Assembly (NCBI GenBank): GCA_030390025.1
Contig: CM059432.1
Location: 33,668,001 to 33,732,000 of the forward strand
Origin: Squalus acanthias
Lineage: Eukaryota
Reading direction: 5' to 3'
DNA: 64,000 bases
Shown: positions 1-23,412 of the stretch, piece by piece
How the letters are laid out: every line of letters begins with the position of its first letter
How positions within the stretch are numbered: position 1 is the stretch's first letter
Translations under genes and position numbers: made by a program
Notes under the pieces: model-generated
Databases searched by the model: none
The model's input: the letters and a program-made list of their open reading frames with translations, nothing else
What the model was told of the DNA's origin: nothing

Positions 1-275
1 GGTTGTGTCCCTGGAATATGTGAGGCTGTGTCCCTGGACTGTATGAGGCTGTGTCCCTGGAATATATGAGATTGTGTCCCTGGACTGTATGAGGCTGTGT
101 CCCTGGAATATATGAGGCTGTGTCCCTGGACTGTATGAGGCTGTGTCTCTGGACTGTATGAGGCTGTGTCTCTGGACTTTATGAGGCTGTGTCGCTGGAT
201 TATATGAGGCTGTGACTCTGGACTGTATGAGGCTGTGACTCTGGACTTCTGTGCCCCTGGAAAATATGACACTGT

Positions 276-1168
276 GGGGTAAAAATTCACTTGGTTGCGC
301 CACCCGTTAGCGCCTTAAGAGGGCGCTAATGGGGCGCAAAGCCGCTAACGCCCGGGCGCAGCGATGTTTGCGCCGCTCGAGAACTTAACTTGAGATTGTG
401 CGGCGGCGCTAAAACTTACCGCTGCGACCACCTGCGCGCGCAGATTGTGACGTCATTCCATGGTGCAACGCCCTTGGGGCGCCCCGTAGCGGAAATTGAG
501 TGGCGCCCCCTGCCTTACCGCCTGGCGCTTCCAACGACCAGAAGACTGGAACGCTATCAATCGCTGTGGGGCTGGGGGGGGCGCTATTTAAAGGGGGCCT
601 CTTCCTGTCTTTTATTGTTGGTGGCATTTTTGAACTACTCATTCTGAGAGAGAGAGGGAGAGACTTCTGGAGAGATTCAACGTTGTGTGAAGGAGTTTTG
701 GGTACTGAGCAGCACTTTGCAGGTTCATTTTGATTTGCCATTCCTTGTATCGATTTAGCAGAGAACGTGGGAGCTGCACTCTGAGCTCTTTGCCTGGTGC
801 TCTCCGTTGTTCTTTCCAGCACATTTGATGTACAGGTCTCTCCAGGCCGAGATTCAAGGCAGCAATGAACAGGATGTGGATGGAAAGCAAGATTAACCAT
901 CCCCTTTAAGAACTGGCCCGTGCCATTGTGTGTGTGTTCCATTGCTGACTGACATTACATGAGCTTCGCCAGCGCTCCGAGTGAGCGCCTCACTGCTCGG
1001 CCTTTGCGCCTTAAGAGAGGTGTGCAGCGCCTGCTTTAGCGCTACACTCACCTCCCGGGGCGGTAAAAGTGAAGTTTCCCGTCAATGCCGATAATTAGCG
1101 CCAGGCGCTAATATTTGCGTCCGGACGATATTTGCGCCCCAAATGGGGCGCGACCTAATTTCTACCCC
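276..1168 (+). mobile_element. Non-autonomous PIF/Harbinger element (MITE-like, 893 bp), copy N1
   Basis: TIRs GGGGTAAAAATT / AATTTCTACCCC. TGT on both sides (273-275, 1169-1171). An empty paralogous site with a single TGT is at 7190-7192. Both ends match the ends of the 4.2-kb elements. Confidence 0.95.
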
Positions 1169-4100
1169 TGTGTCTCTGGAATGTATGAGGCTGTGTCTCT
1201 AGTCTGAATGAGACTGTGTCGCTCGACTGTATGATGCTGTTTCTCTGGACTGCATGAGGTTGTGTCTCTGGGCTGCATGAGGCTTTGTCTCTGGACTGTA
1301 TGAGGCTGTGTCCCTGGACTATATGATGCTGTGTCTCTGGACTGCATGTGGCTGTTTCCCTTGACTGTATGAGGCTGTGTCCCTGGACTGTATGAAGCTG
1401 TGTCTCTTGACTGTATGAGGCTGTGTCCCTGGAATATATGAGGCTGTGTCCCTGGACTGTATGAGGCTGTGTCCCTGGAATATATGAGGCTGTGTCCCTG
1501 GACTGTATGAGGCTGTGTCCCTGGAATATATGAGGCTGTGTCCCTGGACTGTATGAGGCTGTGTCTCTGGAATGTATGAGGCTGTGTCTCCAGACTGAAT
1601 GAGGTTGTGTCCTTGGACTGTATGAGGCTGTGTTTTTAGACTGTATGAGATTGTGTCTCTGGACTGTATGAGTCTGTGTCCTTGGACTGTATGAGGCTGT
1701 GTCTCTGGACTGTATGAGATTGTGTTTCTGGACTGCATGAGGCTGTGTCCTTGGGCAGTATGAGGCTGTGTCTCTGGACTGTATGAGGCTGTGCCCCTGG
1801 AAAATATGATACTGGGTCTCTGGAATGTATGAGGCTGTGTCTCTAGACTGAATGAGGCTGTGTCTCTGGACTGTATGAGGCCGTGTCTCTGGACTGCATG
1901 AGGCTGTGTCCCAAGACTGTACGAGGCTGTGTTTCTGGACTGCATGAGGTTGTGTCTCTGGACTGTACGAGGCTGTCTCTGGGCTGTATCAGGCTGTGTC
2001 TCTCGACTGTATGAGGCTGTGTCTCTGGACAGTATGAGGCTGTGTCTCTGGACTGTATGAGGTTGTGTCTCTGGACTATATGAGGCTGTGTCTCTGGACT
2101 GTATGAGGCTGTGTCTCTGGACTGTATGAGGTTGTGTCTCTGGACTATATCAGACCTTGTCTCTGGAATGTATGAGGCTGTGTCTCTGGACTGTATGAGG
2201 CTGTGTCTCTGGACTGTATGAGGTTGTGACTCTGGACTGTATGAGGCTGTGTCTCTGGACTGAATGAGGCTGTGCCTCTGGACTATATTAGGCTGTGACT
2301 CTGGACAGTATGAGACTGTGTCTCTGGACTGAATGAGGCTGTGTCTCTGGACTGTATGAGGCTGTGTCTCTGGACTGTATGAGGCTGTGTCTCTGGACTG
2401 TAAGAGGCTGTGTCTCTGGACTGTATGAGGTATGTGACTCTGGACTATATGAGGCTGTGTCTCTGGAGTGTATGAGGCTGTGACTCTGGACTGTATGAGG
2501 CTGTGTCTCTGGAATGCATGAGGTTGTGTATCTGGACTGGATGAGGCTGTGTCTCTGGACTGAATGAGGCTGTGTCTCTGGATTGTATGAGGCTGTGGCT
2601 TTGGACTGTATGAGGCTGTGTCTCTGGACTGTATGAGGTTGTGTCTCTGGATTGTATGAGGCTGTGGCTTTGGACTGTATGAGGCTGTGTCTCTGGACTG
2701 TATGAGGCTGTGTCTCTGGACTGTATGAGGCTGTGTCTCTGGACTATAGGAGGCTGTGACTCTGGACTATATGAGGCTGTGTTTCTGAACTGAATGTGTC
2801 TGTGTCTCTGGACTGTATGTGGCTGTGTCTCTGGACTGCATGAGGTTGTGTATCTGGACTGGATGAGGCTGTGTCTCTGGACTGAATGAGGCTGTGTCTC
2901 TGGATTGTATGAGGCTGTGGCTTTGGACTGTATGAGGCTGTGTCTCTGGACTGTATGAGGTTGTGTCTCTGGATTGTATGAGGCTGTGGCTTTGGACTGT
3001 ATGAGGCTGTGTCTCTGGACTGTATGAGGCTGTGTCTCTGGACTGTATGAGGCTGTGTCTCTGGACTGTATGAGGCTGTGTCTCTGGACAGTATGAGGCT
3101 GTGTCTCTGGACTGTATGAGGTTGTGTCTCTGGACTATATGAGGCTGTGTCTCTGGACTGTATGAGGCTGTGTCTCTGGACTGTATGAGGTTGTGTCTCT
3201 GGACTATATCAGACCTTGTCTCTGGAATGTATGAGGCTGTGTCTCTGGACTGTATGAGGCTGTGTCTCTGGACTGTATGAGGTTGTGACTCTGGACTGTA
3301 TGAGGCTGTGTCTCTGGACTGAATGAGGCTGTGCCTCTGGACTATATTAGGCTGTGACTCTGGACAGTATGAGACTGTGTCTCTGGACTGAATGAGGCTG
3401 TGTCTCTGGACTGTATGAGGCTGTGTCTCTGGACTGTATGAGGCTGTGTCTCTGGACTGTAAGAGGATGTGTCTCTGGACTGTATGAGGTATGTGACTCT
3501 GGACTATATGAGGCTGTGTCTCTGGAGTGTATGAGGCTGTGACTCTGGACTGTATGAGGCTGTGTCTCTGGAATGCATGAGGTTGTGTATCTGGACTGGA
3601 TGAGGCTGTGTCTCTGGACTGAATGAGGCTGTGTCTCTGGATTGTATGAGGCTGTGGCTTTGGACTGTATGAGGCTGTGTCTCTGGACTGTATGAGGTTG
3701 TGTCTCTGGATTGTATGAGGCTGTGGCTTTGGACTGTATGAGGCTGTGTCTCTGGACTGTATGAGGCTGTGTCTCTGGACTGTATGAGGCTGTGTCTCTG
3801 GACTATAGGAGGCTGTGACTCTGGACTATATGAGGCTGTGTTTCTGAACTGAATGTGTCTGTGTCTCTGGACTGTATGTGGCTGTGTCTCTGGACTGCAT
3901 GAGGTTGTGTATCTGGACTGGATGAGGCTGTGTCTCTGGACTGAATGAGGCTGTGTCTCTGGATTGTATGAGGCTGTGGCTTTGGACTGTATGAGGCTGT
4001 GTCTCTGGACTGTATGAGGTTGTGTCTCTGGATTGTATGAGGCTGTGGCTTTGGACTGTATGAGGCTGTGTCTCTGGACTGTATGAGGCTGTGTCTCTGG

Positions 4101-4920
4101 ACTGTATGAGGCTGTGTCTCTGGACTGTATGAGGCTGTGTCTCTGGACTGTATGAGGCTGTGACTCTGGACTGTATGAGGCTGTTTCCCTGGACTGTATG
4201 AGGCTGTTTCCCTGGACTGTATGAGGCTGTTTCCCTGGACTGTATGAGGCTGTTTCCCTGGACTGTATGAGGCTGTTTCCCTGGACTGTATGAGGCTGTT
4301 TCCCTGGACTGTATGAGGCTGTTTCCCTGTACTGTATGAGGCTGTTTCCCTGGAAAATATGACACTGTGTCTCTGGACTGTATGAGGCTGTGTCTCTGGA
4401 CTGGATGAGGCTGTGTCTCTGGACTGGATGAGGCTGTGTCTCTGGACTGCATGAGGTTGTGTCTCTGGACTGGATGAGGCTGTGTCTCTGGACTGAATGA
4501 GGTTGTGTCTCTGGACTGTATGAGGCTGTGTCTCTGGACTGTATGAGGCTGTTTCCCTGGAAAATATGACACTGTGTCCCTGGACTGTATGAGGCTGTGT
4601 CTTTGGACTGCATGAGGTTGTGTCTCTGGACTGGATGAGGCTGTGTCTCTGGACTGTATTAGACTGTTTCCCTGGACTGTATGAGGCTGTGTCACTGGAC
4701 TTTATGAGACTGTGTCCTTGGACTGTATGAGGCTGTGTCTCTGGACTGTTTGAGGCTGTGTCGCTGGATTATATGTGGCTGTGACTCTGGACTGTATGAG
4801 GCTGTTTCTCTGGACTGTATGAGGCTGTGTCTCTGGACTGTAAGAGGCTGTGTCTCTGGACTATATGAGGCTGTGTCTCTGGAGTGTATGAGGCTGTCTC
4901 TCTGGACTGTAAGAGGCTGT

Positions 4921-5812
4921 GGGGTAAAAATTCACTTGGTTGCGCCTCCCGTTAGCGCCTTAAGAGGGCGCTAATGGGGCGCAAAGCCGCTAACGCCCGG
5001 GCGTAGCGATGTTTGCGCCGCTCGAGAACTTAACTTGAGATTGTGTGGCGGCGCTAAAACTTACCGCTGCGACCACCTGCGCGCGCAGATTGTGACGTCA
5101 TTCCGTGGTGCAACGCCCTTGTGGCGCCCCGTAGCAGAAATTGAGTGGCGCCCCCTGCCTTACCGCCTGGCGCTTCCAACGACCAGAAGACTGGAACGCT
5201 ATCAATCGCTGTGGGGCTGGGGGGGGCGTTATTTAAAGGGGGCCTCTTCCTGTCTTTTATTGTTGGTGGCATTTTTGAACTACGCATTCTGAGAGAGAGA
5301 GGGAGAGACTTCTGGAGAGATTCAACGTTGTTTGAAGGAGTTTTGGGTACTGAGCAGCACTTTGCAGGTTCATTTTGATTTGCCATTCCTTGTATCGATT
5401 TAGCAGAGACTGTGGGAGCTGCACTCTGAGCTCTTTGCCTGGTACTCTCCATTGTACTTCCAGCACATTTGATGTGCAAGTCTCTCCAGGCCGAGATTCA
5501 AGGCTGCAATGAACAGGATGTGGATGGAAAGCAATATTAACCATCCCCTTTAAGAACTGGCCTGTGCCATTGTGTGTGTGTTCCATTGCTGACTGACATT
5601 ACATGAGCTTCGCCAGCGCTCCGAGTTAGCGCCTCACTGATCGCCCTTTGCGCCTTAAGAGAGGTGTGCAGCGCCTGCTTTAGCGCTCCACTCACCTCCC
5701 GGGGCGGTAAAAGTGAAGTTTCCTGTCAGTGCCGATAATTAGCGCCAGGCGCTAATATTTGCGTCCGGACGATATTTGCGCCCCAAATGGGGCGCGACCT
5801 AATTTCTACCCC
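4921..5812 (+). mobile_element. Non-autonomous PIF/Harbinger element (892 bp), copy N2
   Basis: Near-identical to 276-1168, same TIRs, TGT duplication at 4918-4920 and 5813-5815. Confidence 0.95.
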
Positions 5813-8800
5813 TGTGTCTCTGGACTATAGGAGGCTGTGACTCTGGACTATATGAGGCTGTGTTTCTGGACTGAATGTGTCTGTGTCTCTGGACTGTATG
5901 TGGCTGTGTCTCTGGACTGTATGAGGCTGTGTCCTTGGACTGTATGAGGCTGTGACTCTGGACTGTATGAGGCTGTGTTGCTGGACTGGATGAGCCTGTG
6001 TGTCTGGACTGTATGATGCTGTTTCTCTGGACTGCATGAGGCTGTGTCCCTGGCCTGTATGAGGCTGTATCTCTGGACTGCATGAGGCTGTGTCCCTGGA
6101 CTGTATGATGCTGTATCTCTGGACTGCATGAGGCTGTGTCTCTGGACTTTATGAGGCTGTGTCTCTGGACTTTATGAGGCTGTGACTCTGGACTGAATGA
6201 GGCTGTGTCGCTGGATTATATGAGGCTGTGACTCTGGACAGTATGAGGCTGTGTCTCTGGACTGTATGAGGCTGTGTCTCTGGACTTTATGAGCTGTGTC
6301 TCTGGACTGTATGAGGCTGTGCCCCTGGAAAATATGACACTGTGTCTCTGGAATGTATGAGGCTGTGTCTCTAGTCTGAATGAGGCTGTGTCACTCGACT
6401 GTATGATGCTGTTTCTCTGGACTGCATGAGGCTGTTTCTCTGGACTGCATGAGGCTGTGTCCCTGGACTGTACGAGGCTGTCTCTGGGCTGCATGAGGCT
6501 TTGTCTCTGGACTGTATGAGGCTGTGTCCCTGGACTATATGAGGCTGTGTCTCTGGACTGAATGAGGCTGTGTCCGTGGGCTGTATGAGGCTGTGTCTCT
6601 GGACTGTATGAGTCCTTGTCTCTAGATTGTATGAGGCTGTGTCCTTGGATTTTATGAGGCTGTGTCTCTGGACTGCATGTGGCTCTAACTCTGGACTGTA
6701 TGAGGCTGTGACTCTGGACTGTATGAGGCTGGGTCTCTGGACTGTAGGAGGCTCTGACTCTGGACTGTATGAGGCTGTGACACTGGACTGTATGAGGCTG
6801 GGTCTCTGGACTGCATGAGGCTGTGTCTCTGGACTGAATGAGGCAGTGACTCTGGACTGTGTGAGGCTGTGTCTCTGGACTGTATGAGGCGGTGTCCCTG
6901 GATTGTATGTGGTTGTGTCCCTGGAATATGTGAGGCTGTGTCCCTGGACTGTATGAGGCTGTGTCCCTGGAATATATGAGGCTGTGTCCCTGGAATATAT
7001 GAGGCTGTGTCCCTGGACTGTATGAGGCTGTGTCCCTGGACTCTATGAGGCTGTGTCTCTGGACTGAATGAGGCTGTGTCTCTGGACTTTATGAGGCTGT
7101 GTCCCTGGATTATATGAGGCTGTGACTCTGGACTGTATGAGGCTGTGACTCTGGACTGTATGAGGCTGTGCCCCTGGAAAATATGACACTGTGTCTCTGG
7201 AATGTATGAGGCTGTGTCTCTAGTCTGAATGAGGCTGTTTCGCTCGACTGTATGATGCTGTTTCTCTGGACTGCATGAGGTTGTGTCTCTGGGCTGCATG
7301 AGGCTTTGTCTCTGGACTGTATGAGGCTGTGTCCCTGGACTATATGAGGCTGTGTCTCTGGACTGCATGTGGCTGTTTCCCTTGACTGTATGAGGCTGTG
7401 TCCCTGGACTGTATGAAGCTGTGTCTCTTGACTGTATGAGGCTGTGTCCCTGGAATATATGAGGCTGTGTCCCTGGACTGTATGAGGCTGTGTCCCTGGA
7501 ATATATGAGGCTGTGTCCCTGGACTGTATGAGGCTGTGTCCCTGGAATATATGAGGCTGTGTCCCTGGACTGTATGAGGCTGTGTCTCTGGAATGTATGA
7601 GGCTGTGTCTTCAGACTGAATGAGGTTGTGTCCTTGGACTGTATGAGGCTGTGTTTTTAGACTGTATGAGATTGTGTCTCTGGACTGTATGAGTCTGTGT
7701 CCTTGGACTGTATGAGGCTGTGTCTCTGGACTGTATGAGATTGTGTCTCTGGACTGCATGAGGCTGTGTCCTTGGGCAGTATGAGGCTGTGTCTCTGGAC
7801 TGTATGAGGCTGTGCCCCTGGAAAATATGATACTGGGTCTCTGGAATGTATGAGGCTGTGTTTCTAGACTGAATGAGGCTGTGTCTCTGGACTGTATGAG
7901 GCAGTGTCTCTGGACTGCATGAGGCTGTGTCCCAAGACTGTACGAGGCTGTGTTTCTGGACTGCATGAGGTTGTGTCTCTGGACTGTACGAGGCTGTCTC
8001 TGGGCTGTATGAGGCTGTGTCTCTCGACTGTATGAGGCTGTGTCTCTGGACAGTATGAGGCTGTGTCTCTGGACTGTATGAGGTTGTGTCTCTGGACTAT
8101 ATCAGACCTTGTCTCTGGAATGTATGAGGCTGTGTCTCTGGACTGTATGAGGCTGTGTCTCTGGACTGTATGGGACTGTGTCTCTGGACTGTATGAGGCT
8201 GTGACTCTGGACAGTATGAGGCTGTGTCTCAGGACTGTATGAGGCTGTGTCTCTGGACTGTATGAGGCTGTGTTGTGGACTGTATGAAGCTGTGTCGCTG
8301 GACTGTATGAGGTTGTGACTCTGGACTGTATGAGGCTGTGTCTCTGGACTGAATGAGGCTGTGCCTCTGGACTATATTAGGCTGTGACTCTGGACATTAT
8401 GAGACTGTGTCTCTGGACTGAATGAGGCTGTGTCTCTGGACTGTATGAGGCTGTGTCTCTGGACTGTATGAGGCTGTGTCTCTGGACTGTAAGAGGCTGT
8501 GTCTCTGGACTGTATGAGGTATGTGACTCTGGACTATATGAGGCTGTGTCTCTGGAGTGTATGAGGCTGTCTCTCTGGACTGTAAGAGGCTGTGTGGTAG
8601 AAATTAGGTCGCGCCCCATTTGGGGCGCAAATATCGACCGGACGCAAATATTAGCGCCTGGCGCTAATTATCGGCACTGACAGGAAACTTCACTTTTACC
8701 GCCCCGGGAGGTGAGTGGAGCGCTAAAGCAGGCGCTGCACACCTCTCTTAAGGCGCAAATGCCAAGGAGTGAGGCGCTAACTCAGCGCACGAGCGCAGCG

Positions 8801-8950
8801 CAGCTGCTGCCAGTTAGCGAGGGAACACAGACACACTGGCGCCGGACACTTCTTAAAGTGGGGGGGGCCACTTGCTCCCCAGCCACACCCTGCTCATTGC
8901 AGCCTTGAATCTCAGCCTGGAGAGACCTGTAATCCATTTTGCTGCCAAGC

Positions 8951-10827
8951 ATGGAGAGGGTGAGAGAACGCGCTCATCGCTTCACCGAGCGGGCCTTGGA
9001 TGCTCTGGTTGACGCAGTGGAGCGCAGACGATGCATGCTGTTCCCGGAGAGTGGCAGGAGGCCTTTGCCACGCGAGTTCAGAAGAGTGTGGAAGGAGGTG
9101 GCTCAGAGCGTCTCCTCCAGGAGCATGGTGCCCAGGACCCATGTTCAATGCCGCAAAAAGTTCAACGACCTCACTCGGGTCGTCAGGGTGAGTGGCTTTT
9201 TCTCAATACCTCTCCATCCCTCCATCTCAACCTCACTCTATGGCCAGAGGGTCTTAAAACCCCAATGCACAACACTCATCCAACACCTATGGCCCTTTCA
9301 TCAAACACACACACACATTCCACACTTTGCATACAGTAAGAGCTATTCACCTATGGGAGGCACATCAGGCAAGACCATGGCTGTATATTGTAAGGGCTAT
9401 TCACCTATGGGAGGCACATCAGGCAAGACCATGGCTGTATATTGTAAGGGCTATTCACCTATGGGAGGCACATCAGGCAAGACCATGGCTGTATATTTAC
9501 TCAGATGCTGTCCTTTTTCTTGCAGGCTAAGCTGGCTCATAATCGGAGACAGCAGCAACGGACTGGTGGAGGGCGGCTTCAGCTGCAACCCCTCAGCGAT
9601 CTGGAGGAGCGCGTCCACAGGATTGTGGCAAGCCGGGTGATCGTTCCCGTCGCCACTGGAGACGCCGACCCCGTTGTGGACAGCAATGGTAAGGTCATCA
9701 CCTTTTTGTCCTCTGTCCTTCCACTTGTCCCTCACAATACCAGCCTTTGACACTTTCAATCCAACTTGCTAACTCGCTGCACTTATTCCTCCCTTACTGC
9801 CACCCTGTCCTCACGCTAAAGCCACTCTTGTACCTCCCTGCTTTCAGATGGTGATTCACCAGCTGAGGAGACGGGCCCTGAAGCTGCCACTGGGAGTGAT
9901 GCTGCAGCCGAGGAGGAAGAGGAAGCCGGAGCATCAGTGCCACCCTCTCCCGAGGAAGCCCATGCCCACACTGGGAACACGCCTTCCCCGGAGGGGAGCA
10001 GGGGGGAAGGGGCTGATGATGGTGAAGCTCCAGGACCCAGCGGGCTGCAGCAACGCCATGGGGGGAGTAGGGAAGAACGGGGGCCTTCTCCCCAGAGGGA
10101 GAGTATGCCAGACACTCCTACTGCAATGGACGCAGAGGAGGAGCGGCTGATTGCAGAAATGAACACCCAGGCGGTGGGCATGCACACTGAGCTCATGGGT
10201 GCAGTGGGAAGGGTGCCCGAATGCATTGAGTCACTGGCAAGGAGTGTGGAGCACTTCGCTGTAGCACAGGCGGATGCCACACTAACGCTTAGTGCTGCAA
10301 TTCAGTCACTGGCTGCCGTGATCCCACCTCTGACTGCTCTCATACAGACTCAGATGGAGGCCACGCGAGCACAGACTGCTGCCAACCTCGATGGTTCGTG
10401 CACATGTCCCCGGGGCTGTCACCGCGCCGCAGCAGGCCAGCAATCTGTTCTCCGGCAGATTGCTCCGGATGCTGAAGTGCTGCCCCGTGGGAGTGCCAGT
10501 GTGTCGGGCGAGCAGGGAGTTGCTGTCCTCTCGCACGATGACAGCATTCCTGCTGCCAACACTGTCACTTCTCCACTGCACTTGCCACCGCCTGTAGGAC
10601 AGACTGCTGCCGCCCATGCAGAGTTGGTGCAGTCTGCAGCCGGGCCCTCCAGGCCCAGAAGTGGTCGAGGCCGTCCTTCAGGGGCATCTGCAGTGTCAGG
10701 GTCTGACGAGCAGCAGCCTTCCACCAGCCTTGCTGCAGCCACTGAGGTCCCATTACGGAGGAGCAGTAGGGTTAGAAGGGGGGAAGTGCGCAAGGGAAGG
10801 AGATCACCCTCGAAGGGCAAAAAGTAG
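8951..10827 (+). CDS. Harbinger Myb/SANT-like DNA-binding protein, 3 exons (8951-9187, 9526-9688, 9848-10827), predicted 459 aa
   Basis: Exon 1 reads RFTERALDALVDAV...W.EVA..V......RT..QCRKKFNDL (Myb/SANT-like, NAIF1/MSANTD type). GT-AG introns (AGG|GTGAGT, TTGCAG|, ATG|GTAAGG, TTTCAG|) join in frame to the RTGGG motif and to ORF 9937-10827, which has a basic C-terminus. Confidence 0.88.
9341..9497 (+). repeat. 54-bp tandem repeat (3 copies) in intron 1 of the Myb-like gene
   Basis: GCTATTCACCTATGGGAGGCACATCAGGCAAGACCATGGCTGTATATTGTAAGG occurs 3 times here and twice in the other two full-length copies. Confidence 0.9.
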
Positions 10828-11121
10828 GAGGTGTGCCAAAATGCTGGTCATTTTTTTATTAAAGGCCGAGGTTCATGGTCCAACTTTTGTTTAGTGTTTT
10901 GGACATTATCTCCAGGTTGTGAGAACCAGTTATGTTATTGACTGTTTTTTTGTGTTTATTTCTATGAGTTTGTCATGAGGAATTGACACACACAGAGTTT
11001 GTAAAATAAATAAGTTTCTGTATTCAAAATATACATGGCTGGTGGTTGGAATTATTGGTGCCTTGGCCGGCTTAGGGGTTGCGTGCTGGGTTGATTAGTG
11101 TTTGTAGCAATGGCAGGGGCC

Positions 11122-12282
11122 CTAGAAGCGGCTTGCTATTAGTCGTTGACGGACGGCCCTTGCAGTTTGACCATTGTGGGCCGCCCTCCTGCCTTGGTGC
11201 TGCTGATGATCATCGTCCTCGTCCTCTTCCTCCTCTTCCTCCTCCTCCTCTGGTGGTGCTACAAGGCCTGGTGGCATTGGCTGGGTCCTGAGGATTGCCA
11301 TGTTGTGCAACATGCAGCACACGACTACGAAGTTCGAAACTTGCTCAGGCGAGTACTGCGGGGCTCCTCCGGAATGGTCCAGACAGCGGAACCGTTGTTT
11401 CAGCACGCCGATTGTGCGCTCAATAATGTTCCTGGTTGCTTGATGGCTTTCATTGTACCGCAGCTCAGCAGGGGTGTTTGGCGTATGGAGCGGTGTCATT
11501 AGCCAGGTGCTCAATGCGTACCCCTTGTCCCCCAGAAGCCAACCAACTGGCTGATGCGGTGCCTCAAAAACCTCTGCCACAGTAGTCTGGCGCAGGATGA
11601 AAGCATCGTGGCAGCTGCCCGGATAGTGGGCATTGACAGCGAGTATCACCTGTCTGTGGTCACAGACCAACTGGACATTCAAGGAATGGAACCCCTTTCT
11701 GTTCCTGAATTCCTCTGCATTCTCTCGCGGAGCACGCAAAGCCACATGCGTGCAGTCAATGGCGCCCTGCACCATGGGGAAGCCCGCTACCCTCGCAAAG
11801 CCCAGAGCACGGTCACGCTGCTTGTCTGGGGTCATAGGGAAAGAGATGAAGTCTCGTCTCCTTCTGAAGAGGGCATTGGTGACCTGCCGGATGCAGCGAT
11901 GCACCGCAAACTGGGAGATATTGGCGAGGTCCCCAACAGCAGCTTGGAATGAGCCAGTGGCGTAGAAGTTCAAAGCCACTGTGACCTTCACTGCCACCGA
12001 CAGAGACGTCCTGGACCTCAGCTGAGGCTGCAGATCTGGCTGCAGCAGGTGGCAGAGCTCAGTGACCACCTCCTTGCTGAATCGCAGCCTTCGCAAACAC
12101 AGCTCCTCGGACATATGGATGTAGGAGAGCTGTTCACGATATACCCTGGGAGGGTAAGCTCTCCTGTACATGCGCCTGATGGCCCTCCTCCGTCTGGCCA
12201 TCATTGCCACTCTCTGTCTGCGTCTTGGTATCCTCCGATTGAGCTGGAGCAGGACGACGCCCCCAATCATTGCAGCCCCCAT
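11122..12282 (-). CDS. Harbinger (HARBI1-like) DDE transposase, 386 aa, intact
   Basis: Motifs RLRFSKE, ALNFYATGSFQ (HTH region), GAIDCTH, NRKGFHSLNVQLVCD, PGSCHDA, LLGDKGY, YNESH..TRNIIERTIGVLKQRFRCL, CCMLHN. Start at MGAAM taken by analogy with 22252-23412. Confidence 0.96.
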   Translation of the reverse strand: MGAAMIGGVVLLQLNRRIPRRRQRVAMMARRRRAIRRMYRRAYPPRVYREQLSYIHMSEELCLRRLRFSKEVVTELCHLLQPDLQPQLRSRTSLSVAVKVTVALNFYATGSFQAAVGDLANISQFAVHRCIRQVTNALFRRRRDFISFPMTPDKQRDRALGFARVAGFPMVQGAIDCTHVALRAPRENAEEFRNRKGFHSLNVQLVCDHRQVILAVNAHYPGSCHDAFILRQTTVAEVFEAPHQPVGWLLGDKGYALSTWLMTPLHTPNTPAELRYNESHQATRNIIERTIGVLKQRFRCLDHSGGAPQYSPEQVSNFVVVCCMLHNMAILRTQPMPPGLVAPPEEEEEEEEEDEDDDHQQHQGRRAAHNGQTARAVRQRLIASRF

Positions 12283-12476
12283 ATTCTCTTTGCCAGAAAA
12301 GTAATGAGGTACAGCAACTAAAGTAGCAACAAAGTTAGGATGAATAGGCAAAACTACCTCACAAAGCGTTGAGTCAATGTAGAAGTCTCTCTCTCTCTCT
12401 CTCCGAATCTCTCTCTCTCTCTCAGAACGAGTGGTGCATAAATGTCGACCACAGAAAAAGACAGGAAGAGGCCCCC

Positions 12477-12621
12477 TTTAAATAGCGCCCCCCCCAGCCC
12501 CACACCGATTGATAACGTTCCAGTCTTCCGGTCGTTGGAAGCGCCAGGCGGTAAGGCAGGGGGCGCCACTCAATTTCCGCTCCGGGGCGCCCCAAGGGCG
12601 TTGCACCATGGAATGACGTCA
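12477..12621 (-). promoter_or_regulatory. Putative transposase promoter: TATTTAAA box and palindromic CRE (TGACGTCA)
   Basis: TTTAAATA at 12477-12484 lies ~200 bp upstream of the ATG, and TGACGTCA is at 12614-12621. The same pair is kept in N1, N2 and the 43409-44181 MITE. Confidence 0.5.
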
Positions 12622-15054
12622 CAATCTGCGCGCGCAGGTGGTCGCAGCGGTAAGTTTTAGCGCCGCCGCACAATCTCAAGTTAAGTTCTCGAGCGGCGCA
12701 AACAGCGCTGCGCCCGGGCGTTAGCGGCTTAACGCCCCATTAGCGCCCTCTTAAGGCGCTAATGGGAGGCGCAACCAAGTGAATTTTTACCCCTGTGTCT
12801 CTGGACTATAGGAGGCTGTGACTCTGGACTATATGAGGCTGTGTTTCTGGACTGAATGTGTCTGTGTCTCTGGACTGTATGTGGCTGTGTCTCTGGACTG
12901 CATGAGGTTGTGTATCTGGACTGGATGAGGCTGTGTCTCTGGACTGAATGAGGCTGTGTCTCTGGATTGTATGAGGCTGTGGCTTTGGACTGTATGAGGC
13001 TGTGTCTCTGGACTGTATGAGGTTGTGTCTCTGGATTGTATGAGGCTGTGGCTTTGGACTGTATGAGGCTGTGACTCTGGACTGTATGAGGCTGTGTCTC
13101 TGGACTGGATGACGCTGTGACTCTGGACTGTATGAGGCTGTTTCCCTGGACTGTATGAGGCTGTTTCCCTGGACTGTATGAGGCTGTTTCCCTGGACTGT
13201 ATGAGGCTGTTTCCCTGGACTGTATGAGGCTGTGTCTCTGGACTGTATGAGGCTGTGTCTCTGGACTGTATGAGGCTGTTTCCCTGGAAAATATGACACT
13301 GTGTCTCTGGACTGTATGAGGCTGTGTCTCTGGACTGGATGAGGCTGTGTCTCTGGACTGCATGAGGTTGTGTCTCTGGACTGGATGAGGCTGTGTCTCT
13401 GGAATGAATGAGGTTGTGTCTCTGGACTGTATGAGGCTGTGTCTCTGGACTGTATGAGGCTGTTTCCCTGGAAAATATGACACTGTGTCCCTGGACTGTA
13501 TGAGGCTGTGTCTTTGGACTGCATGAGGCTGTGTCTCTGGACTGTATGAGGCTGTGTCTCTGGACTGTATGCGGCTGTGTCTCTGGACTGGATGACGCTT
13601 TGACTCTGGACTGTATGAGGCTGTTTCCCTGGACTGTATGAGGCTGTTTCCCTGGACTGTATGAGGCTGTTTCCCTGGACTGTATGAGGCTGTTTCCCTG
13701 GAAAATATGACACTGTGTCTCTGGACTGGATGAGGCTGTTTCCCTGGACTGTATGAGGCTGTGCCCCTGGAAAATATGACACTGTGTCTCTGGAATGTAT
13801 GAGGCTGTGTCTCTCGACTTTAGGAGGCTGTGTCACTGGAGTATGTGAGGCTGTGTCTCTCGACTGAATGATGCTGTGTCTCTAGACTGTATGAGGCTGT
13901 TTCCCTGGACTGTATGAGGCTGTTTCCCTGGACTTTATGAGGCTGTGCCCCTGGAATGTATGAGGCTGTGTCTCTGGACTGTATGAGGCTGTGTCTCTGG
14001 ACTGTATGAGGCTGTTTCCCTGGACTGTATGAGGCTGTTTCCCTGGACTGTATGAGGCTGTTCCCTGGAATGTATGAGGCTGTGACTCTGGTCTGTATGA
14101 GGTTGTGTCCTTGGACTGTATGAGGCTGTGTTTCTGGACTGTATGAGACTGTGTCCCTGAACTGTACGAGGCTGTGTCTCTGGACTGTATTAGGCTGTGT
14201 CTCTGGACTGTATGAGGCTGTGACTCTGGACTGTATGAGGCTGTTTCCCTGGACTGTATGAGGCTGTGCCCATGGACTGTATGAGGCTGTTTCCCTGGAC
14301 TGTATGAGGCTGTATCCCTGGACTGTATGAGGCTGTTTCCCTGGACTGTATGAGGCTGTGCCCCTGGAAAATATGACACTGTGTATCTGGACTGTATGAG
14401 GCTGTGTATCTGGACTGTTTGAGGCTGTGTATCTGGACTGTATGAGTCTGTGTCTCTGGACTGTATGAGGCTCTGTCTCTGGACTATATGAGGCTGTGTC
14501 CCTGGATTGTATGAGGCTGTGTCCCTGGACTGTATGAGGCTGTGTCCCTGGACTGTATGAGGCTGTGTCCCTGGACTGTATGAGGCTGTGTCTCTTGACT
14601 GTATGAGGCTGGGTCTCTGGACTGTATGAGTCTGTGTCTCTGGACTGTATGAGGCTGTGTCTCTGGACTGTATGAGTCTGTGTCTCTGGACTCTATGGGG
14701 TAGAAATTAGGTCGCGCCCCATTTGGGGCGCAAATATCGTTCGAGCGCAAATATTAGCGCCTGGCACTAATTATCGGCACTGACAGGAAACTTCACTTTT
14801 ACCGCCCCGGGAGGTGAGTGGAGCGCTAAATTAGACGCTGCACACCTCTCTTAAGGCGCAAAGGCCAAGGAGTGAGGCGCTAACTCAGCGCACGAGCGCA
14901 GCGCAGCTGCTGCCAGTTAGCGAGGGAACACAGACACACTGGCGCCGGACACTTCTTAAAGCGGGGGGGGGCCACTTGCTCCCCAGCCACACCCTGCTCA
15001 TTGCAGCCTTGAATCTCAGCCTGGAGAGACCTGTAATCCATTTTGCTGCCAAGC

Positions 15055-16868
15055 ATGGAGAGGGTGAGAGAACGCGCTCATCGCTTCACCGAGCGGGCCT
15101 TGGATGCTCTGGTTGACGCAGTGGAGCGCAGACGATGCATGCTGTTCCCGGAGAGTGGCAGGAGGCCTTTGCCACGCGAGTTCAGAAGAGTGTGGAGGGA
15201 GGTGGCTCAGAGCGTCTCCTCCAGGAGCATGGTGCCCAGGACCCATGTTCAGTGCCGCAAAAAGTTCAACGACCTCACTCGGGTCGTCAGGGTGAGTGGC
15301 TTTTTCTCAATACCTCTCCATCCCTCCATCTCAACCTCACTCTATGGCCAGAGGGTCTTAAAACCCCAATGCACAACACTCATCCAACACCTATGGCCCT
15401 TTCATCAAACACACACACACATTCCACACTTTGCATACAGTAAGGGCTATTCACCTATGGGAGGCACATCAGGCAAGACCATGGCTGCATATTGTAAGGG
15501 CTATTCACCTATGGGAGGCACATCAGGCAAGACCATGGCTGTATATTTACTCAGATGCTGTCCTTTTTCTTGCAGGCTCATAATCGGAGACAGCAGCAAC
15601 GGACGGGTGGAGGGCGGCTTCAGCTGCAACCCCTCAGCGATCTGGAGGAGCGCGTCCACAGGATTGTGGCAAGCCGGGTGATCGGTCCCGTCGCCACTGG
15701 GGACGCCGACCCCGTTGTGGACAGCAATGGTAAGGTCATCACCTTTTTGTCCTCTGTCCTTCCACTTGTCCCTCACAATACCAGCCTTTGACACTTTCAA
15801 TCCAACTTGCTAACTCGCTGCACTTATTCCTCCCTTACTGCCACCCTGTCCTCACGCTAAAGCCACTCTTGTACCTCCCTGCTTTCAGATGGTGATTCAC
15901 CAGCTGAGGAGACGGGCCCTGAAGCTGCCACTGGGAGTGATGCTGCAGCTGAGGAGGAAGAGGAAGCCGGAGCATCAGTGCCACCCTCTCCCGAGGAAGC
16001 CCATGGCCACACTGGGAACACGCCTTCCCCGGAGGGGAGCAGGGGGGAAGGGGCTGATGATGGTGAAGCTCCAGGACCCAGCGGGCTGCAGCAACGCCAT
16101 GGGGGGGGGAGGGAAGAACGGGAGCCTTCTCCCCAGAGGGAGAGTATGCCAGACACTCCTACTGCAATGGACGCAGAGGAGGAGCGGCTGATTGCAGAAA
16201 TGAACAGCCAGGCGGTGGGCATGCACACTGAGCTCATGGGTGCAGTGGGAAGGGTGCCCGAATGCATTGAGGCACTGGCAAGGAGTGTGGAGCACTTCGC
16301 TGTAGCACAGGCGGATGCCACACTAAAGCTTAGTGCTGCAATTCAGTCACTGGCTGCCAGGAACCCATCTGAGACTGCTCTCATGCAGACTCAGATTGAG
16401 GCCACGCGAGCACTGACTGCTGCCATCCTCGATGGTTCGTGCACATGTCCCCGGGGCTGTCACCGCGCCGCAGCAGGCCAGCAATCTGTTCTCCGGCAAA
16501 TTGCTCCGGATGCTGAAGTGCTGCCCCGTGGGAGTGCCAGTGTGTCGGGCGAGCAGGGAGTTGCTGTCCTCTCTCACGATGACAGCATTCCTGCTGCCAA
16601 CACTGTCACTTCTCCACTGCACTTGCCACCGCCTGTAGGACAGACTGCTGCCGCCCATGCAGAGTTGGTGCAGTCTGCAGCCGGGCCCTCCAGGCCCAGA
16701 AGTGGTCGAGGCCGTCCTTCAGGGGCATCTGCAGTGTCAGGGTCTGACGAGCAGCAGCCTTCCACCAGCCTTGCTGCAGCCACTGAGGTCCCATTACGGA
16801 GGAGCAGTAGGGTTAGAAGGGGGGAAGTGCGCAAGGGAAGGAGATCACCCTCGAAGGGCAAAAAGTAG
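15055..16868 (+). CDS. Myb/SANT-like protein of copy A2, exons 15055-15291, 15576-15729, 15889-16868 (predicted 456 aa)
   Basis: Same splice sites as A1, with a 9-bp in-frame deletion at the start of exon 2. Confidence 0.82.
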
Positions 16869-17162
16869 GAGGTGTGCCAAAATGCTGGTCATTTTTTTAT
16901 TAAAGGCCGAGGTTCATGGTCCAACTTTTGTTTAGTGTTTTGGACATTATCTCCAGGTTGTGAGAACCAGTTATGTTATTGACTGTTTTTTTGTGTTTAT
17001 TTCTATGAGTTTGTCATGAGGAATTGACACACACAGAGTTTGTAAAATAAATAAGTTTCTGTATTCAAAATATACATGGCTGGTGGTTGGAATTATTGGT
17101 GCCTTGGCCGGCTTAGGGGTTGCGTGCTGGGTTGATTAGTGTTTGTAGCAATGGCAGGGGCC

Positions 17163-18325
17163 CTAGAAGCGGCTTGCTATTAGTCGTTGACGGACGGCCC
17201 TTGCAGTTTGACCATTGTGGGCCGCCCTCCTGCCTTGGTGCTGCTGATGATCATCGTCCTCGTCCTCTTCCTCCTCTTCCTCCTCCTCCTCTGGTGGTGC
17301 TACAAGGCCTGGTGGCATTGGCTGGGTCCTGAGGATTGCCATGTTGTGCAACATGCAGCACACGACTACGAAGTTCGAAACTTGCTCAGGCGAGTACTGC
17401 AGGGGCTCCTCCGGAATGGTCCAGACAGCGGAACCGTTGTTTCAGCACGCCGATTGTGCGCTCAATAATGTTCCTGGTTGCTTGATGGCTTTCATTGTAC
17501 CGCAGCTCAGCAGGGGTGTTTGGCGTACGGAGCGGTGTCATTAGCCAGGTGCTCAATGCGTACCCCTTGTCCCCCAGAAGCCAACCAACTGGCTGATGCG
17601 GTGCCTCGAAAACCTCTGCCACAGTAGTCTGGCGCAGGATGAAAGCATCGTGGCAGCTGCCCGGATAGTGGGCATTGACAGCGAGTATCACCTGTCTGTG
17701 GTCACAGACCAACTGCACATTCAAGGAATGGAACCCCTTTCTGTTCCTGAATTCCTCTGCATTCTCTCGCGGAGCACGCAAAGCCACATGCGTGCAGTCA
17801 ATGGCGCCCTGCACCATGGGGAAGCCCGCTACCCTCGCAAAGCCCAGAGCACGGTCACGCTGCTTGTCTGGGGTCATAGGGAAAGAGATGAAGTCTCGTC
17901 TCCTTCTGAAGAGGGCATTGGTGACCTGCCGGATGCAGCGATGCACCGCAAACTGGGAGATATTGGCGAGGTCCCCAACAGCAGCTTGGAATGAGCCAGT
18001 GGCGTAGAAGTTCAAAGCCACTGTGACCTTCACTGCCACCGACAGAGACGTCCTGGACCTCAGCTGAGGCTGCAGATCTGGCTGCAGCAGGTGGCAGAGC
18101 TCAGTGACCACCTCCTTGCTGAATCGCAGCCTTCGCAAACACAGCTCCTCGGACATATGGATGTAGGAGAGCTGTTCACGATATACCCTGGGAGGGTAAG
18201 CTCTCCTGTACATGCGCCTGATGGCCCTCCTCCGTCTGGCCATCATTGCCACTCTCTGTCTGCGTCTCAGCTATCCTCCGATTGAGCTGGAGCAGGACGA
18301 CGCCCCCAATCATTGCAGCCCCCAT
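17163..18325 (-). pseudogene. Harbinger transposase of copy A2 with two +1 frameshifts (~17401 and ~18270)
   Basis: Split into ORFs 17386-18252 and 17163-17363, otherwise nearly identical to A1/A3. The frameshifts may be consensus errors. Confidence 0.8.
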
Positions 18326-20133
18326 ATTCTCTTTGCCAGAAAAGTAATGAGGTACAGCAACTAAAGTAGCAACAAAGTTAGGATGAACTAGGCAAAACTA
18401 CCTCACAAAGCGTTGAGTCAATGTAGAAGTCTCTCTCTCTCTCTCTCCGAATCTCTCTCTCTCTCTCAGAACGAGTGGTGCATAAATGTCGACCACAGAA
18501 AAAGACAGGAAGAGGCCCCCTTTAAATAGCGCCCCCCCCAGCCCCACACCGATTGATAACGTTCCAGTCTTCCGGTCGTTGGAAGCGCCAGGCGGTAAGG
18601 CAGGGGGCGCCACTCAATTTCCGCTCCGGGGCGCCCCAAGGGCGTTGCACCATGGAATGACGTCACAATCTGCGCGCGCAGGTGGTCGCAGCGGTAAGTT
18701 TTAGCGCCGCCGCACAATCTCAAGTTAAGTTCTCGAGCGGCGCAAACAGCGCTGCGCCCGGGCGTTAGCGGCTTAACGCCCCATTAGCGCCCTCTTAAGG
18801 CGCTAATGGGAGGCGCAACCAAGTGAATTTTTACCCCTGTGTCTCTGGACTATAGGAGGCTGTGACTCTGGACTATATGAGGCTGTGTTTCTGGACTGAA
18901 TGTGTCTGTGTCTCTGGACTGTATGTGGCTGTGTCTCTGGACTGCATGAGGTTGTGTATCTGGACTGGATGAGGCTGTGTCTCTGGACTGAATGAGGCTG
19001 TGTCTCTGGATTGTATGAGGCTGTGGCTTTGGACTGTATGAGTCTGTGTCTCTGGACTGTATGAGGTTGTGTCTCTGGATTGTATGAGGCTGTGGCTTTG
19101 GACTGTATGAGGCTGTGTCTCTGGACTGTATGAGGCTGTGTCTCTGGACTGTATGAGGCTGTGTCTCTGGACTGTATGAGGCTGTGTCTCTGGACTGTAT
19201 GAGGCTGTGACTCTGGACTGTATGAGACTGTGTCCCTGAACTGTACGAGGCTGTGTCTCTGGACTGTATTAGGCTGTGTCTCTGGACTGTATGAGGCTGT
19301 GACTCTGGACTGTATGAGGCTGTTTCCCTGGACTGTATGAGGCTGTGCCCATGGACTGTATGAGGCTGTTTCCCTGGACTGTATGAGGCTGTATCCCTGG
19401 ACTGTATGAGGCTGTTTCCCTGGACTGTATGAGGCTGTGTCCCTGGAAAATATGACTCTGTGTATCTGGACTGTATGAGGCTGTGTATCTGGACTGTTTG
19501 AGGCTGTGTATCTGGACTGTATGAGTCTGTGTCTCTAGACTGTATGAGGCTCTGTCTCTGGACTATATGCGGCTGTGTCCCTGGATTGTATGAGGCTGTG
19601 TCCCTGGACTGTATGAGGCTGTGTCCCTGGACTGTATGAGGCTGTGTCCCTGGACTGTATGAGGCTGTGTCTCTTGACTGTATGAGGCTGGGTCTCTGGA
19701 CTGTATGAGTCTGTGTCTCTGGACTGTATGAGGCTGTGTCTCTGGACTGTATGAGTCTGTGTCTCTGGACTCTATGGGGTAGAAATTAGGTCGCGCCCCA
19801 TTTGGGGCGCAAATATCGTTCGAGCGCAAATATTAGCGCCTGGCACTAATTATCGGCACTGACAGGAAACTTCACTTTTACCGCCCCGGGAGGTGAGTGG
19901 AGCGCTAAATTAGACGCTGCACACCTCTCTTAAGGCGCAAAGGCCAAGGAGTGAGGCGCTAACTCAGCGCACGAGCGCAGCGCAGCTGCTGCCAGTTAGC
20001 GAGGGAACACAGACACACTGGCGCCGGACACTTCTTAAAGCGGGGGGGGGCCACTTGCTCCCCAGCCACACCCTGCTCATTGCAGCCTTGAATCTCAGCC
20101 TGGAGAGACCTGTAATCCATTTTGCTGCCAAGC

Positions 20134-21957
20134 ATGGAGAGGGTGAGAGAACGCGCTCATCGCTTCACCGAGCGGGCCTTGGATGCTCTGGTTGACGCAG
20201 TGGAGCGCAGACGATGCATGCTGTTCCCGGAGAGTGGCAGGAGGCCTTTGCCACGCGAGTTCAGAAGAGTGTGGAGGGAGGTGGCTCAGAGCGTCTCCTC
20301 CAGGAGCATGGTGCCCAGGACCCATGTTCAGTGCCGCAAAAAGTTCAACGACCTCACTCGGGTCGTCAGGGTGAGTGGCTTTTTCTCAATACCTCTCCAT
20401 CCCTCCATCTCAACCTCACTCTATGGCCAGAGGGTCTTAAAACCCCAATGCACAACACTCATCCAACACCTATGGCCCTTTCATCAAACACACACACACA
20501 TTCCACACGTTGCATACAGTAAGGGCTATTCACCTATGGGAGGCACATCAGGCAAGACCATGGCTGCATATTGTAAGGGCTATTCACCTATGGGAGGCAC
20601 ATCAGGCAAGACCATGGCTGTATATTTACTCAGATGCTGTCCTTTTTCTTGCAGGCTAAGCTGGCTCATAATCGGAGACAGCAGCAACGGACGGGTGGAG
20701 GGCGGCTTCAGCTGCAACCCCTCAGCGATCTGGAGGAGCGCGTCCACAGGATTGTGGCAAGCCGGGTGATCGGTCCCGTCGCCACTGGGGACGCCGACCC
20801 CGTTGTGGACAGCAATGGTAAGGTCATCACCTTTTTGTCCTCTGTCCTTCCACTTGTCCCTCACAATACCAGCCTTTGACACTTTCAATCCAACTTGCTA
20901 ACTCGCTGCACTTATTCCTCCCTTACTGCCACCCTGTCCTCACGCTAAAGCCACTCTTGTACCTCCCTGCTTTCAGATGGTGATTCACCAGCTGAGGAGA
21001 CGGGCCCTGAAGCTGCCACTGGGAGTGATGCTGCAGCTGAGGAGGAAGAGGAAGCCGGAGCATCAGTGCCACCCTCTCCCGAGGAAGCCCATGGCCACAC
21101 TGGGAACACGCCTTCCCCGGAGGGGAGCAGGGGGGAAGGGGCTGATGATGGTGAAGCTCCAGGACCCAGCGGGCTGCAGCAACGCCATGGGGGGGGGGAG
21201 GGAAGAACGGGAGCCTTCTCCCCAGAGGGAGAGTATGCCAGACACTCCTACTGCAATGGACGCAGAGGAGGAGCGGCTGATTGCAGAAATGAACAGCCAG
21301 GCGGTGGGCATGCACACTGAGCTCATGGGTGCAGTGGGAAGGGTGCCCGAATGCATTGAGGCACTGGCAAGGAGTGTGGAGCACTTCGCTGTAGCACAGG
21401 CGGATGCCACACTAAAGCTTAGTGCTGCAATTCAGTCACTGGCTGCCAGGAACCCATCTGAGACTGCTCTCATGCAGACTCAGATTGAGGCCACGCGAGC
21501 ACTGACTGCTGCCATCCTCGATGGTTCGTGCACATGTCCCCGGGGCTGTCACCGCGCCGCAGCAGGCCAGCAATCTGTTCTCCGGCAAATTGCTCCGGAT
21601 GCTGAAGTGCTGCCCCGTGGGAGTGCCAGTGTGTCGGGCGAGCAGGGAGTTGCTGTCCTCTCTCACGATGACAGCAGTCCTGCTGCCAACACTGTCACTT
21701 CTCCACTGCACTTGCCACCGCCTGTAGGACAGACTGCTGCCGCCCATGCAGAGTTGGTGCAGTCTGCAGCCGGGCCCTCCAGGCCCAGAAGTGGTCGAGG
21801 CCGTCCTTCAGGGGCATCTGCAGTGTCAGGGTCTGACGAGCAGCAGCCTTCCACCAGCCTTGCTGCAGCCACTGAGGTCCCATTACGGAGGAGCAGTAGG
21901 GTTAGAAGGGGGGAAGTGCGCAAGGGAAGGAGATCACCCTCGAAGGGCAAAAAGTAG
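20134..21957 (+). pseudogene. Myb/SANT-like gene of copy A3 (exons 20134-20370, 20655-20817, 20977-21957) with a +1 G in a homopolymer at 21189-21198
   Basis: G10 here versus G9 in A2 shifts the exon-3 frame. This could be a sequencing homopolymer error. Confidence 0.7.
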
Positions 21958-22251
21958 GAGGTGTGCCAAAATGCTGGTCATTTTTTTATTAAAGGCCGAG
22001 GTTCATGGTCCAACTTTTGTTTAGTGTTTTGGACATTATCTCCAGGTTGTGAGAACCAGTTATGTTATTGACTGTTTTTTTGTGTTTATTTCTATGAGTT
22101 TGTCATGAGGAATTGACACACACAGAGTTTGTAAAATAAATAAGTTTCTGTATTCAAAATATACATGGCTGGTGGTTGGAATTATTGGTGCCTTGGCCGG
22201 CTTAGGGGTTGCGTGCTGGGTTGATTAGTGTTTGTAGCAATGGCAGGGGCC

Positions 22252-23412
22252 CTAGAAGCGGCTTGCTATTAGTCGTTGACGGACGGCCCTTGCAGTTTGA
22301 CCATTGTGGGCCGCCCTCCTGCCTTGGTGCTGCTGATGATCATCGTCCTCGTCCTCTTCCTCCTCTTCCTCCTCCTCCTCTGGTGGTGCTACAAGGCCTG
22401 GTGGCATTGGCTGGGTCCTGAGGATTGCCATGTTGTGCAACATGCAGCACACGACTACGAAGTTCGAAACTTGCTCAGGCGAGTACTGCAGGGCTCCTCC
22501 GGAATGGTCCAGACAGCGGAACCGTTGTTTCAGCACGCCGATTGTGCGCTCAATAATGTTCCTGGTTGCTTGATGGCTTTCCTGGTACCGCAGCTCAGCA
22601 GGGGTGTTTGGCGTACGGAGCGGTGTCATCAGCCAGGTGCTCAATGCGTACCCCTTGTCCCCCAGAAGCCAACCAACTGGCTGATGCGGTGCCTCGAAAA
22701 GTTCTGCCACAGTAGTCTGGCGCAGGATGAAAGCATCGTGGCAGCTGCCCGGATAGTGGGCATTGACAGCGAGAATCACCTGTCTGTGGTCACAGACCAA
22801 CTGTACATTCAAGGAATGGAACCCCTTTCTGTTCCTGAATTCCTCTGCATTCTCTCGCGGAGCACGCAAAGCCACATGCGTGCAGTCAATGGCGCCCTGC
22901 ACCATGGGGAAGCCCGCTACCCTCGCAAAGCCCATAGCACGGTCATGCTGCTTGTCTGGGGTCATAGGGAAAGAGATGAAGTCTCGTCTCCTTCTGAAGA
23001 GGGCATTGGTGACCTGCCGGATGCAGCGATGCACCGCAAACTGGGAGATATTGGCGAGGTCCCCAACAGCAGCTTGGAATGAGCCAGTGGCGTAGAAGTT
23101 CAAAGCCACTGTGACCTTCACTGCCACCGACAGAGACGTCCTGGACCTCAGCTGAGGCTGCAGATCTGGCTGCAGCAGGTGGTAGAGCTCAGTGACCACC
23201 TCCTTGCTGAATCGCAGCCTTCGCAAACACAGCTCCTCGGACATATGGATGTAGGAGAGCTGTTCACGATATACCCTGGGAGGGTAAGCTCTCCTGTACA
23301 TGCGCCTGATGGCCCTCCTCCGTCTGGCCATCATTGCCACTCTCTGTCTGCGTCTCACTATCCTCCGATTCAGCTGGAGCAGGACGACGCCCCCAATCAT
23401 TGCAGCCCCCAT
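22252..23412 (-). CDS. Harbinger (HARBI1-like) DDE transposase, 386 aa, intact
   Basis: Full ORF with GAIDCTH / HDA / LLGDKGY / IERTIG catalytic motifs. Confidence 0.96.
   Translation of the reverse strand: MGAAMIGGVVLLQLNRRIVRRRQRVAMMARRRRAIRRMYRRAYPPRVYREQLSYIHMSEELCLRRLRFSKEVVTELYHLLQPDLQPQLRSRTSLSVAVKVTVALNFYATGSFQAAVGDLANISQFAVHRCIRQVTNALFRRRRDFISFPMTPDKQHDRAMGFARVAGFPMVQGAIDCTHVALRAPRENAEEFRNRKGFHSLNVQLVCDHRQVILAVNAHYPGSCHDAFILRQTTVAELFEAPHQPVGWLLGDKGYALSTWLMTPLRTPNTPAELRYQESHQATRNIIERTIGVLKQRFRCLDHSGGALQYSPEQVSNFVVVCCMLHNMAILRTQPMPPGLVAPPEEEEEEEEEDEDDDHQQHQGRRAAHNGQTARAVRQRLIASRF

Follow-up and report, generated by a model that had tools for sequence, protein, structure and literature searches.

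The 64,000-nt stretch of Squalus acanthias contig CM059432.1 analysed here (the window, from whose first base all coordinates are counted) begins with a 23-bp satellite array (1..25894, forward strand; consensus CTGTGTCTCTGGACTGTATGAGG) that continues past the window's left edge and is interrupted by five Harbinger transposons. Two of them are non-autonomous elements in reverse orientation with 97% identity to each other, N1 (276..1168; target site duplication (TSD) TGT/TGT in the site TGACAC-TGT-GTCTCT) and N2 (4921..5812; 892 bp). Three are in forward orientation: the autonomous-type A1 (8594..12793; 4200 bp), the recombinant A2 (14697..18837; mismatched TSDs TAT/TGT, transposase frame broken) and the autonomous-type A3 (19776..23924; different monomer phase, TSD TAT/TAT, 386-aa transposase open). 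All five possess 12-bp terminal inverted repeats (TIRs; GGGGTARAAATT in N2), their TSDs match in every element except the recombinant A2 (four of five), and N1, N2 and A1 share one monomer phase. The satellite itself runs in a single orientation, its 15-nt core being found 172 times forward and never in reverse in the window's array. The subject of this analysis is the pair N2 and A1, two different elements that occupy the same satellite junction in opposite orientations within identical flanks.

A1 has two genes. The transposase open reading frame (ORF; 11122..12282, reverse strand, 386 aa) matches DDE_Tnp_4 (PF13359, E 2.3e-38), with D176, D252 and E288 as candidates for what we take to be the catalytic triad. 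The Myb/SANT gene of the ORF1 type (8951..10827, forward strand) is represented by open three-exon models with tentative splice sites, and its first exon (~8951-9187) matches Myb_DNA-bind_5 (PF13873, E 5e-10); the first intron contains a 54-bp tandem repeat (9336-9497) present in three copies in A1 and in about two in A2 and A3. Among the 120 transposase homologues listed, the top matches belong to sharks and rays (45-66% identity) and the majority are named putative nuclease HARBI1. With sharks and rays as the source of the closest proteins, the elements can be assigned to a PIF/Harbinger family of a cartilaginous-fish-like genome, and the DDE_Tnp_4/HARBI1-type transposase, the Myb/SANT second gene and the combination of short TIRs with a 3-bp TSD are those of PIF/Harbinger (PHIS superfamily).

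The initial annotation had placed N2 and A1 correctly at the above coordinates, had noted their difference in size and orientation, and had reported about 65 nt of identical left flank and about 100 nt of identical right flank; flank alignment bears this out with 67 and 107 exact nucleotides, TGT included. TGT is present on both sides of N2 and of A1. The left match extends to 114 nt with no substitutions when one 24-nt deletion in the N2 flank is allowed, so that the patch preceding N2 (4807..4920, ending in the TSD TGT) equals the left flank of A1 (8456..8593), which ends in AGAGGC-TGT and runs on from a 1.4-kb higher-order block. The right patch of N2 (5813..5919, TSD TGT plus flank) is identical over 107 nt to the TSD and flank following A1 (12794..12900), and the same stretch is also found after A2 (all four patches read on the forward strand). 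The monomer variant adjoining on the left, designated 59, has two occurrences in the window, preceding N2 and A1 respectively, and a joined, empty 59/18 junction is absent from the window. Core-motif junctions of the element-free array form 50,403 pairs, of which only 48 (0.1%) have the exact context from -64 to +107 in common, and the chance of such a shared context is about 0.6% for the six pairs among four insertion sites. The double occupancy is confirmed as real as assembled, its junctions being known from the assembly alone; in contigs, the only reads-derived material used, none of the 32 pieces listed bridges a junction (30,260 more lie beyond these).

Simple duplication of one insertion, as had been argued at the outset, cannot yield opposite orientations in common flanks. 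The further proposal that the two elements lie in neighbouring higher-order units did not hold, as the paralogy between N2 and A1 is a short patch: the sites are alike over about 220 bp only, with different monomers beyond, so the N2 site must have been copied within a short tract, either empty or filled. The small size of this patch also excludes a single insertion duplicated with its higher-order unit. A long paralogous block does exist in the array (165-2478 versus 7075-8567; divergence 0.4-0.9%); N1 lies inside its first copy, and the corresponding site of the second copy (7167..7235, forward strand) is empty with a single TGT, which shows a 3-bp target duplication. In the true unit paralogue of the A1 site (2455..2745, forward strand) there is no element and no monomer 59, and the sequence is rearranged: some 230 additional bp duplicate monomers from downstream and recur about 1.06 kb further on via tandem duplication. 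This empty paralogue may be an excision scar, or equally an ancestral junction with a 230-bp duplication; precise excision leaves no trace. A recent 1.06-kb tandem duplication within the satellite spans 2018-4135, with 1 mismatch in 1042 aligned bases.

One way in which the two-event interpretation might have failed, already named in the initial annotation, is that N2 is an inverted deletion product of A1 formed in place. This origin is excluded by the divergence of the interiors, by the presence of N1 at another site and by N-type interiors in contigs of the organisms labelled C and D. In the left-end alignment, N and A elements show 14-22 differences per 50 columns at columns 201-300 and 351-400, and the middle 160 bp of N2 has no match to A1 better than E 1.1. 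The sister element N1 lies at a separate site, for which an empty paralogue exists, and has a TSD of its own; it differs from N2 at 26 of 893 columns (2.9%), so that N2 is unlikely to be a copy of N1 derived from unit duplication, given that unit copies are 0.4-0.9% apart. A flip through crossover between inverted N2 and A1 was also rejected, as it would invert the satellite and no inverted satellite was found. Because the array never inverts and the TIRs are 12 bp, ordinary crossover cannot flip an element, and the arrangement would appear to need at least two transposase events at the target, barring conversion of both flanks or assembly error. In their outer 166 and 330 bp the N elements are approximately 96-99% like A, yet immediately inward they diverge much more strongly, as though the ends had been renewed from the A family.

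The insertion sites also share a sequence preference. All four fit A-N-N-Y-[3]-R-N-N-T, a core motif that occurs at 328 sites of 59 classes in the element-free array. The consensus junction TGAGGC-TGT-GTCTCT accounts for 135 of the 328 core sites, none of which is filled. The A1/N2 class, AGAGGC-TGT-GTCTCT, comprises five sites and is the sole class of the 59 with A-6 and T+6, letters also present in the published 15-bp palindrome of Harbinger3_DR, and the N1 class has the highest motif score. When sites were ranked by the Harbinger3_DR motif, taken from PMC3016246, three of the four insertion sites fell in the top 32 of 327 (P 0.003; P 0.027 with N2 and A1 counted once). An identity score to Harbinger3_DR without the core filter was dropped, as it marked 290 of 11,509 positions as high, compared with 32 after filtering, and these were mostly taken as off-phase. 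In flank halves outside the satellite, A-4/T+4 is present in 9 of 10 (P 1e-4) and Y-1/R+1 in 8 of 10, the ten halves being hand-counted and including one duplicate. The six contig flanks used came from listed loose ends and joints, beyond which there are 225 further loose ends, with the exclusion of ends inside elements, a mixed consensus (X2 4914), an end with no legible letters beside the TIR (X8 5821) and a one-letter case. An extended palindromic preference is thus apparent, as A-4/T+4 is also found at all four array sites, albeit in a small sample.

These observations are best explained, with a probability of roughly 65%, by two transposase insertions into one preferred target, after which recombination in the array brought the copies side by side. 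N2 and A1 are both members of one cartilaginous-fish Harbinger family, whose transposase would prefer the palindrome A-N-N-Y, three bases, R-N-N-T, the better with A-6 and T+6, and since the target is palindromic either orientation of insertion would be accepted. Most monomer junctions of the satellite would be passable targets, with a rare variant giving AGAGGC-TGT-GTCTCT, presumably among the best, and this target would have been hit separately by an N element in reverse orientation and by a forward A element. The more favoured route, itself tentative, is that two empty copies or alleles were independently occupied; that a filled copy was precisely excised and then refilled is possible, although rather unlikely. 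Array recombination would subsequently have left a site copy of about 220 bp, with N2 inside, 2.8 kb from A1. The anatomy, the TSDs, the identity of the flanks, the separate origin of N, the size of the patch, the rank of the site by the motif and the swapping of flanks in A2 are observed, whereas we infer in which order the events took place, how strong the preference is and that any excision occurred. What is retained of the original interpretation is that one target was hit in two events, either independently or following clean excision; its setting in neighbouring units is given up.

Several points weigh against two plain insertions. Three further copies of the identical 15-mer are empty and both 59/18 copies are filled, an outcome expected about once in ten if the 15-mer alone decided. 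If every motif match brought a 5-fold gain, a shared +/-23 context in any of the six pairs would have a probability of 0.19, or 0.04 for contexts with at most three copies, and the motif therefore does not fully absorb the coincidence. A3 matches the Harbinger3_DR motif at only 5 of 12 positions, and the core filter was partly derived from the same insertion sites that it evaluates. No joint of the empty site was found among the joints listed, which come from contigs of 4 of the 21 listed runs and do not prove its absence. The motif, in sum, makes double occupancy plausible, yet not expected. Finally, plain insertion leaves unexplained the left end of A1, with its N-type sequence and the GT at its junction.

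This left end is the chief basis for a different reading, in which a site that held an N element, or was broken, was gap-repaired from an A element in the array, A1 being the repair product; in one variant, N was flipped in one copy through excision and reinsertion, and the exchange of occupants is likened to P-element replacement. The left 166 bp of A1 (8594..8759, forward strand) group with N1 and N2 and not with A3: seven informative sites (8638-8732) have A1, N1 and N2 in agreement versus A3, and none has the N elements fixed against both A copies, in comparison with seven N-fixed sites in the right 330 bp (left/right contrast P ~0.03). The differences between A1 and A3 are concentrated in the same left segment (9/166 versus 52/3980, P 0.0006). 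The left TIR of A1 reads GTGG rather than GGGG, and the junction TGT-GT-GGTAG can be read as the satellite continued by two bases, which would fit repair. Exchange between elements is moreover demonstrated by A2, whose left flank and left half resemble A3 and whose right end and right flank resemble A1, with a mosaic switch between about bases 1950 and 3750, and whose transposase frame is broken by single-base indels; from its mixed ends, flanks and TSDs it follows that array recombination swaps flanks between elements. Neither this swapping nor a homology-directed route had been raised in the initial annotation. However, the right end of A1 is A-type to within 61 bp of its terminus, a single G-to-T substitution in the TIR would explain the junction equally, and the polarity of the left patch is ambiguous, as A3 may be the converted copy or A1 may descend from a hybrid master of its subfamily. 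P-element ends leave TIR remnants. PIF/Harbinger elements are modelled to cut within the TSD, which explains their usually perfect excision, and no remnant of a TIR would then be available to direct a flipped replacement (PMC4561436). The opposite orientation would still require an earlier transposase event, and homology-directed replacement is on balance improbable. Equally doubtful is the broader notion that a site in a satellite array can change its occupant with no new jump, in that a neighbouring element serves as template for the repair of a break and a short N is thereby rebuilt full-length in place (A1 retaining the N-type left end), and that short-flanked conversion tracts carry filled sites to other parts of the array; the target would have arisen by a point change in one monomer. 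If true, such a change of occupant would be the equivalent, in nature and in a vertebrate, of P-element replacement, in which one P element was precisely replaced by another at its site through gap repair (PMC3887531); that model differs in being a laboratory system. The differences between A1 and A3 fall in patches (A1 bases 44-167 and 1693-1792), which suggests exchange between subfamilies.

The remaining alternatives concern the flanks rather than the occupants. N2 might have inserted at its own TGT-phase site and had both flanks later overwritten from those of A1, with pairing via satellite, TSD and 12-bp TIR. The patch is indeed short and approximately symmetric (78-114 nt left, 89-107 nt right) in surroundings unlike those of A1, its 221 nt contain no substitution while N2 and N1 differ at 26 positions, and N1, N2 and A1 share their monomer phase. 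Such conversion would nevertheless have to stay in register in both flanks, with 0.9 kb and 4.2 kb of non-matching DNA lying between them, and neither TIR of N2 has acquired A1 variants. The lack of substitutions fits the background paralogue divergence of 0.4-0.9% (P 0.41-0.13), and the copying of a single flank-N-flank tract explains the symmetry equally, so that overwriting of both flanks is quite unlikely. Least probable is an assembly error that attached N2 to the flanks of A1, even though satellite arrays are difficult to assemble, none of the listed contig pieces bridges a junction and the single-base indels of A2 could be errors. Both N2 junctions are base-exact with TSD, the 24-nt deletion in the left flank of N2 is private to it, and beyond both flanks lie unique monomers; a two-sided mis-join with a flip would also be unusual for assemblers.

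Comparison with known systems relates the family to PIF/Harbinger elements, while its TSDs set it apart from the narrow PIF/Harbinger group and from both Nuwa groups. PIF/Harbinger elements in the narrow sense duplicate TWA. The TSDs found here are different, being TGT (N1, N2, A1) and TAT (A3 and a related element at 43409), with TAA in one of the six contig flanks; TAA is the usual target duplication of mPing (PMC2836001). The Nuwa groups (PMC4482050) are similar in their 12-bp TIRs starting with GGG and, in the case of NuwaI, in a length of about 4.2 kb and two ORFs, and NuwaII is similar in the C and G flanking the TSD at TGT sites. NuwaI, however, has the TSD CWG and NuwaII TNA (C-TNA-G), neither of which is seen in the window (CWG in none of the five window elements whose two TSDs agree), and the family fits neither group, judged by TSD alone. 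A close parallel is zebrafish Harbinger3_DR with its non-autonomous partner Harbinger3N_DR (as cited in PMC3016246 and PMC2836001), which likewise combines DDE transposase and Myb-like genes with a 3-bp TSD and a palindromic extended target. Harbinger3_DR integrates into the palindrome AAACACCWGGTCTTT (PMC3016246), and relative to its form AAACAC-CWG-GTCTTT the A1/N2 site matches 8 of 12 flank letters and the N1 site 9 of 12. It differs in that the TSDs here are TGT and TAT (TAA, AAA, ATA and ACA in contigs), not CWG, and in that the host is a cartilaginous fish; the likeness described here is one of architecture and target.

Reuse of a target by such elements has precedents. PIF/Harbinger elements usually excise perfectly, and their preferred target extends over 9-15 bp, with 15 bp in vertebrates (PMC2836001). 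At the maize r gene, two PIF elements are on record as having inserted six times at one site (cited in PMC1925063), and this case and that of Stowaway in intron 4 of beta-amylase resemble the present one in having different elements of the same kind at the same base, with gains and losses. Their occupants are alleles or species, whereas N2 and A1 lie 2.8 kb apart in one assembled haplotype of a satellite, and the available text of PMC1925063 makes no mention of orientation. Literature searches, with most subscription papers beyond reach, returned no paper on this Harbinger family or on the same arrangement in a satellite. The pair is a new example of known Harbinger behaviour and not a new targeting system, as repeated reuse of an extended palindromic target is already known.

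Beyond the satellite, runs of nine organism labels (20 of the 21 listed runs) contain 54-89% of the sampled 31-letter words of A1, and the family may be young or common to close species. In organism A (runs X1 and X2) the summed depth is about 1e6 on the element versus 0-650 at the outermost flank bins, where summed contig depth is not copy number and a flank had to be at least 93% alike to be counted. Those flanks that can be read in the contigs consist of sequence other than this satellite, and the family is mostly located outside it rather than being a satellite-specific transposon. The initial annotation had regarded the shared flanks of N2 and A1 as its strongest evidence for site specificity; this stands for the known extended palindromic preference, and does not extend to satellite specificity in view of the depth and the non-satellite flanks. 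A related non-autonomous element (43409..44181, forward strand; 69-73% to the A1 ends) lies outside the satellite with TSD TAT/TAT in TGACTC-TAT-GATTCT. In a contig of organism D (run X9), an N-type transposase-side end adjoins a 30-nt flank equal to that before the Myb-side end of this element, and these constitute a second same-flank pair in opposite orientation, in another repeat. A degenerate TIR pattern had no matches in metagenome contigs or in prokaryote contigs. At loose end 5821 of run X8, a second Harbinger TIR follows about 11 bases past an N or A end, and this contig may hold two elements one short repeat unit apart.

Other features of the window include a distant Harbinger end (25895-26305, 73% to A1) that terminates the satellite, has lost its outer ~19 bp and is joined again after GGCTGTGT, and a second, GC-rich 23-bp satellite (26303-27882) beginning inside it. 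Older transposase-like or Myb-gene-like remnants, 69-76% to A1, are located at 29957-30640, 32519-32965, 45503-46375 and 51612-52591, with TIR-like ends at 45448 and 53192. Tandem repeats outside the array occupy 36537-37580 and 50981-51308 (49-bp and 74-bp units).

The N2/A1 pair would provide a natural instance of insertion homoplasy, in which identical flanks need not mean one insertion event, and this matters for the use of transposon presence or absence as markers and for satellite assembly. The site classes suggest that single-base variants of the satellite monomer decide where Harbinger elements land. With open transposase frames in A1 and A3 and near-identical DNA in nine organism labels, the family is perhaps young, and it could provide a natural vertebrate Harbinger for target-choice assays.

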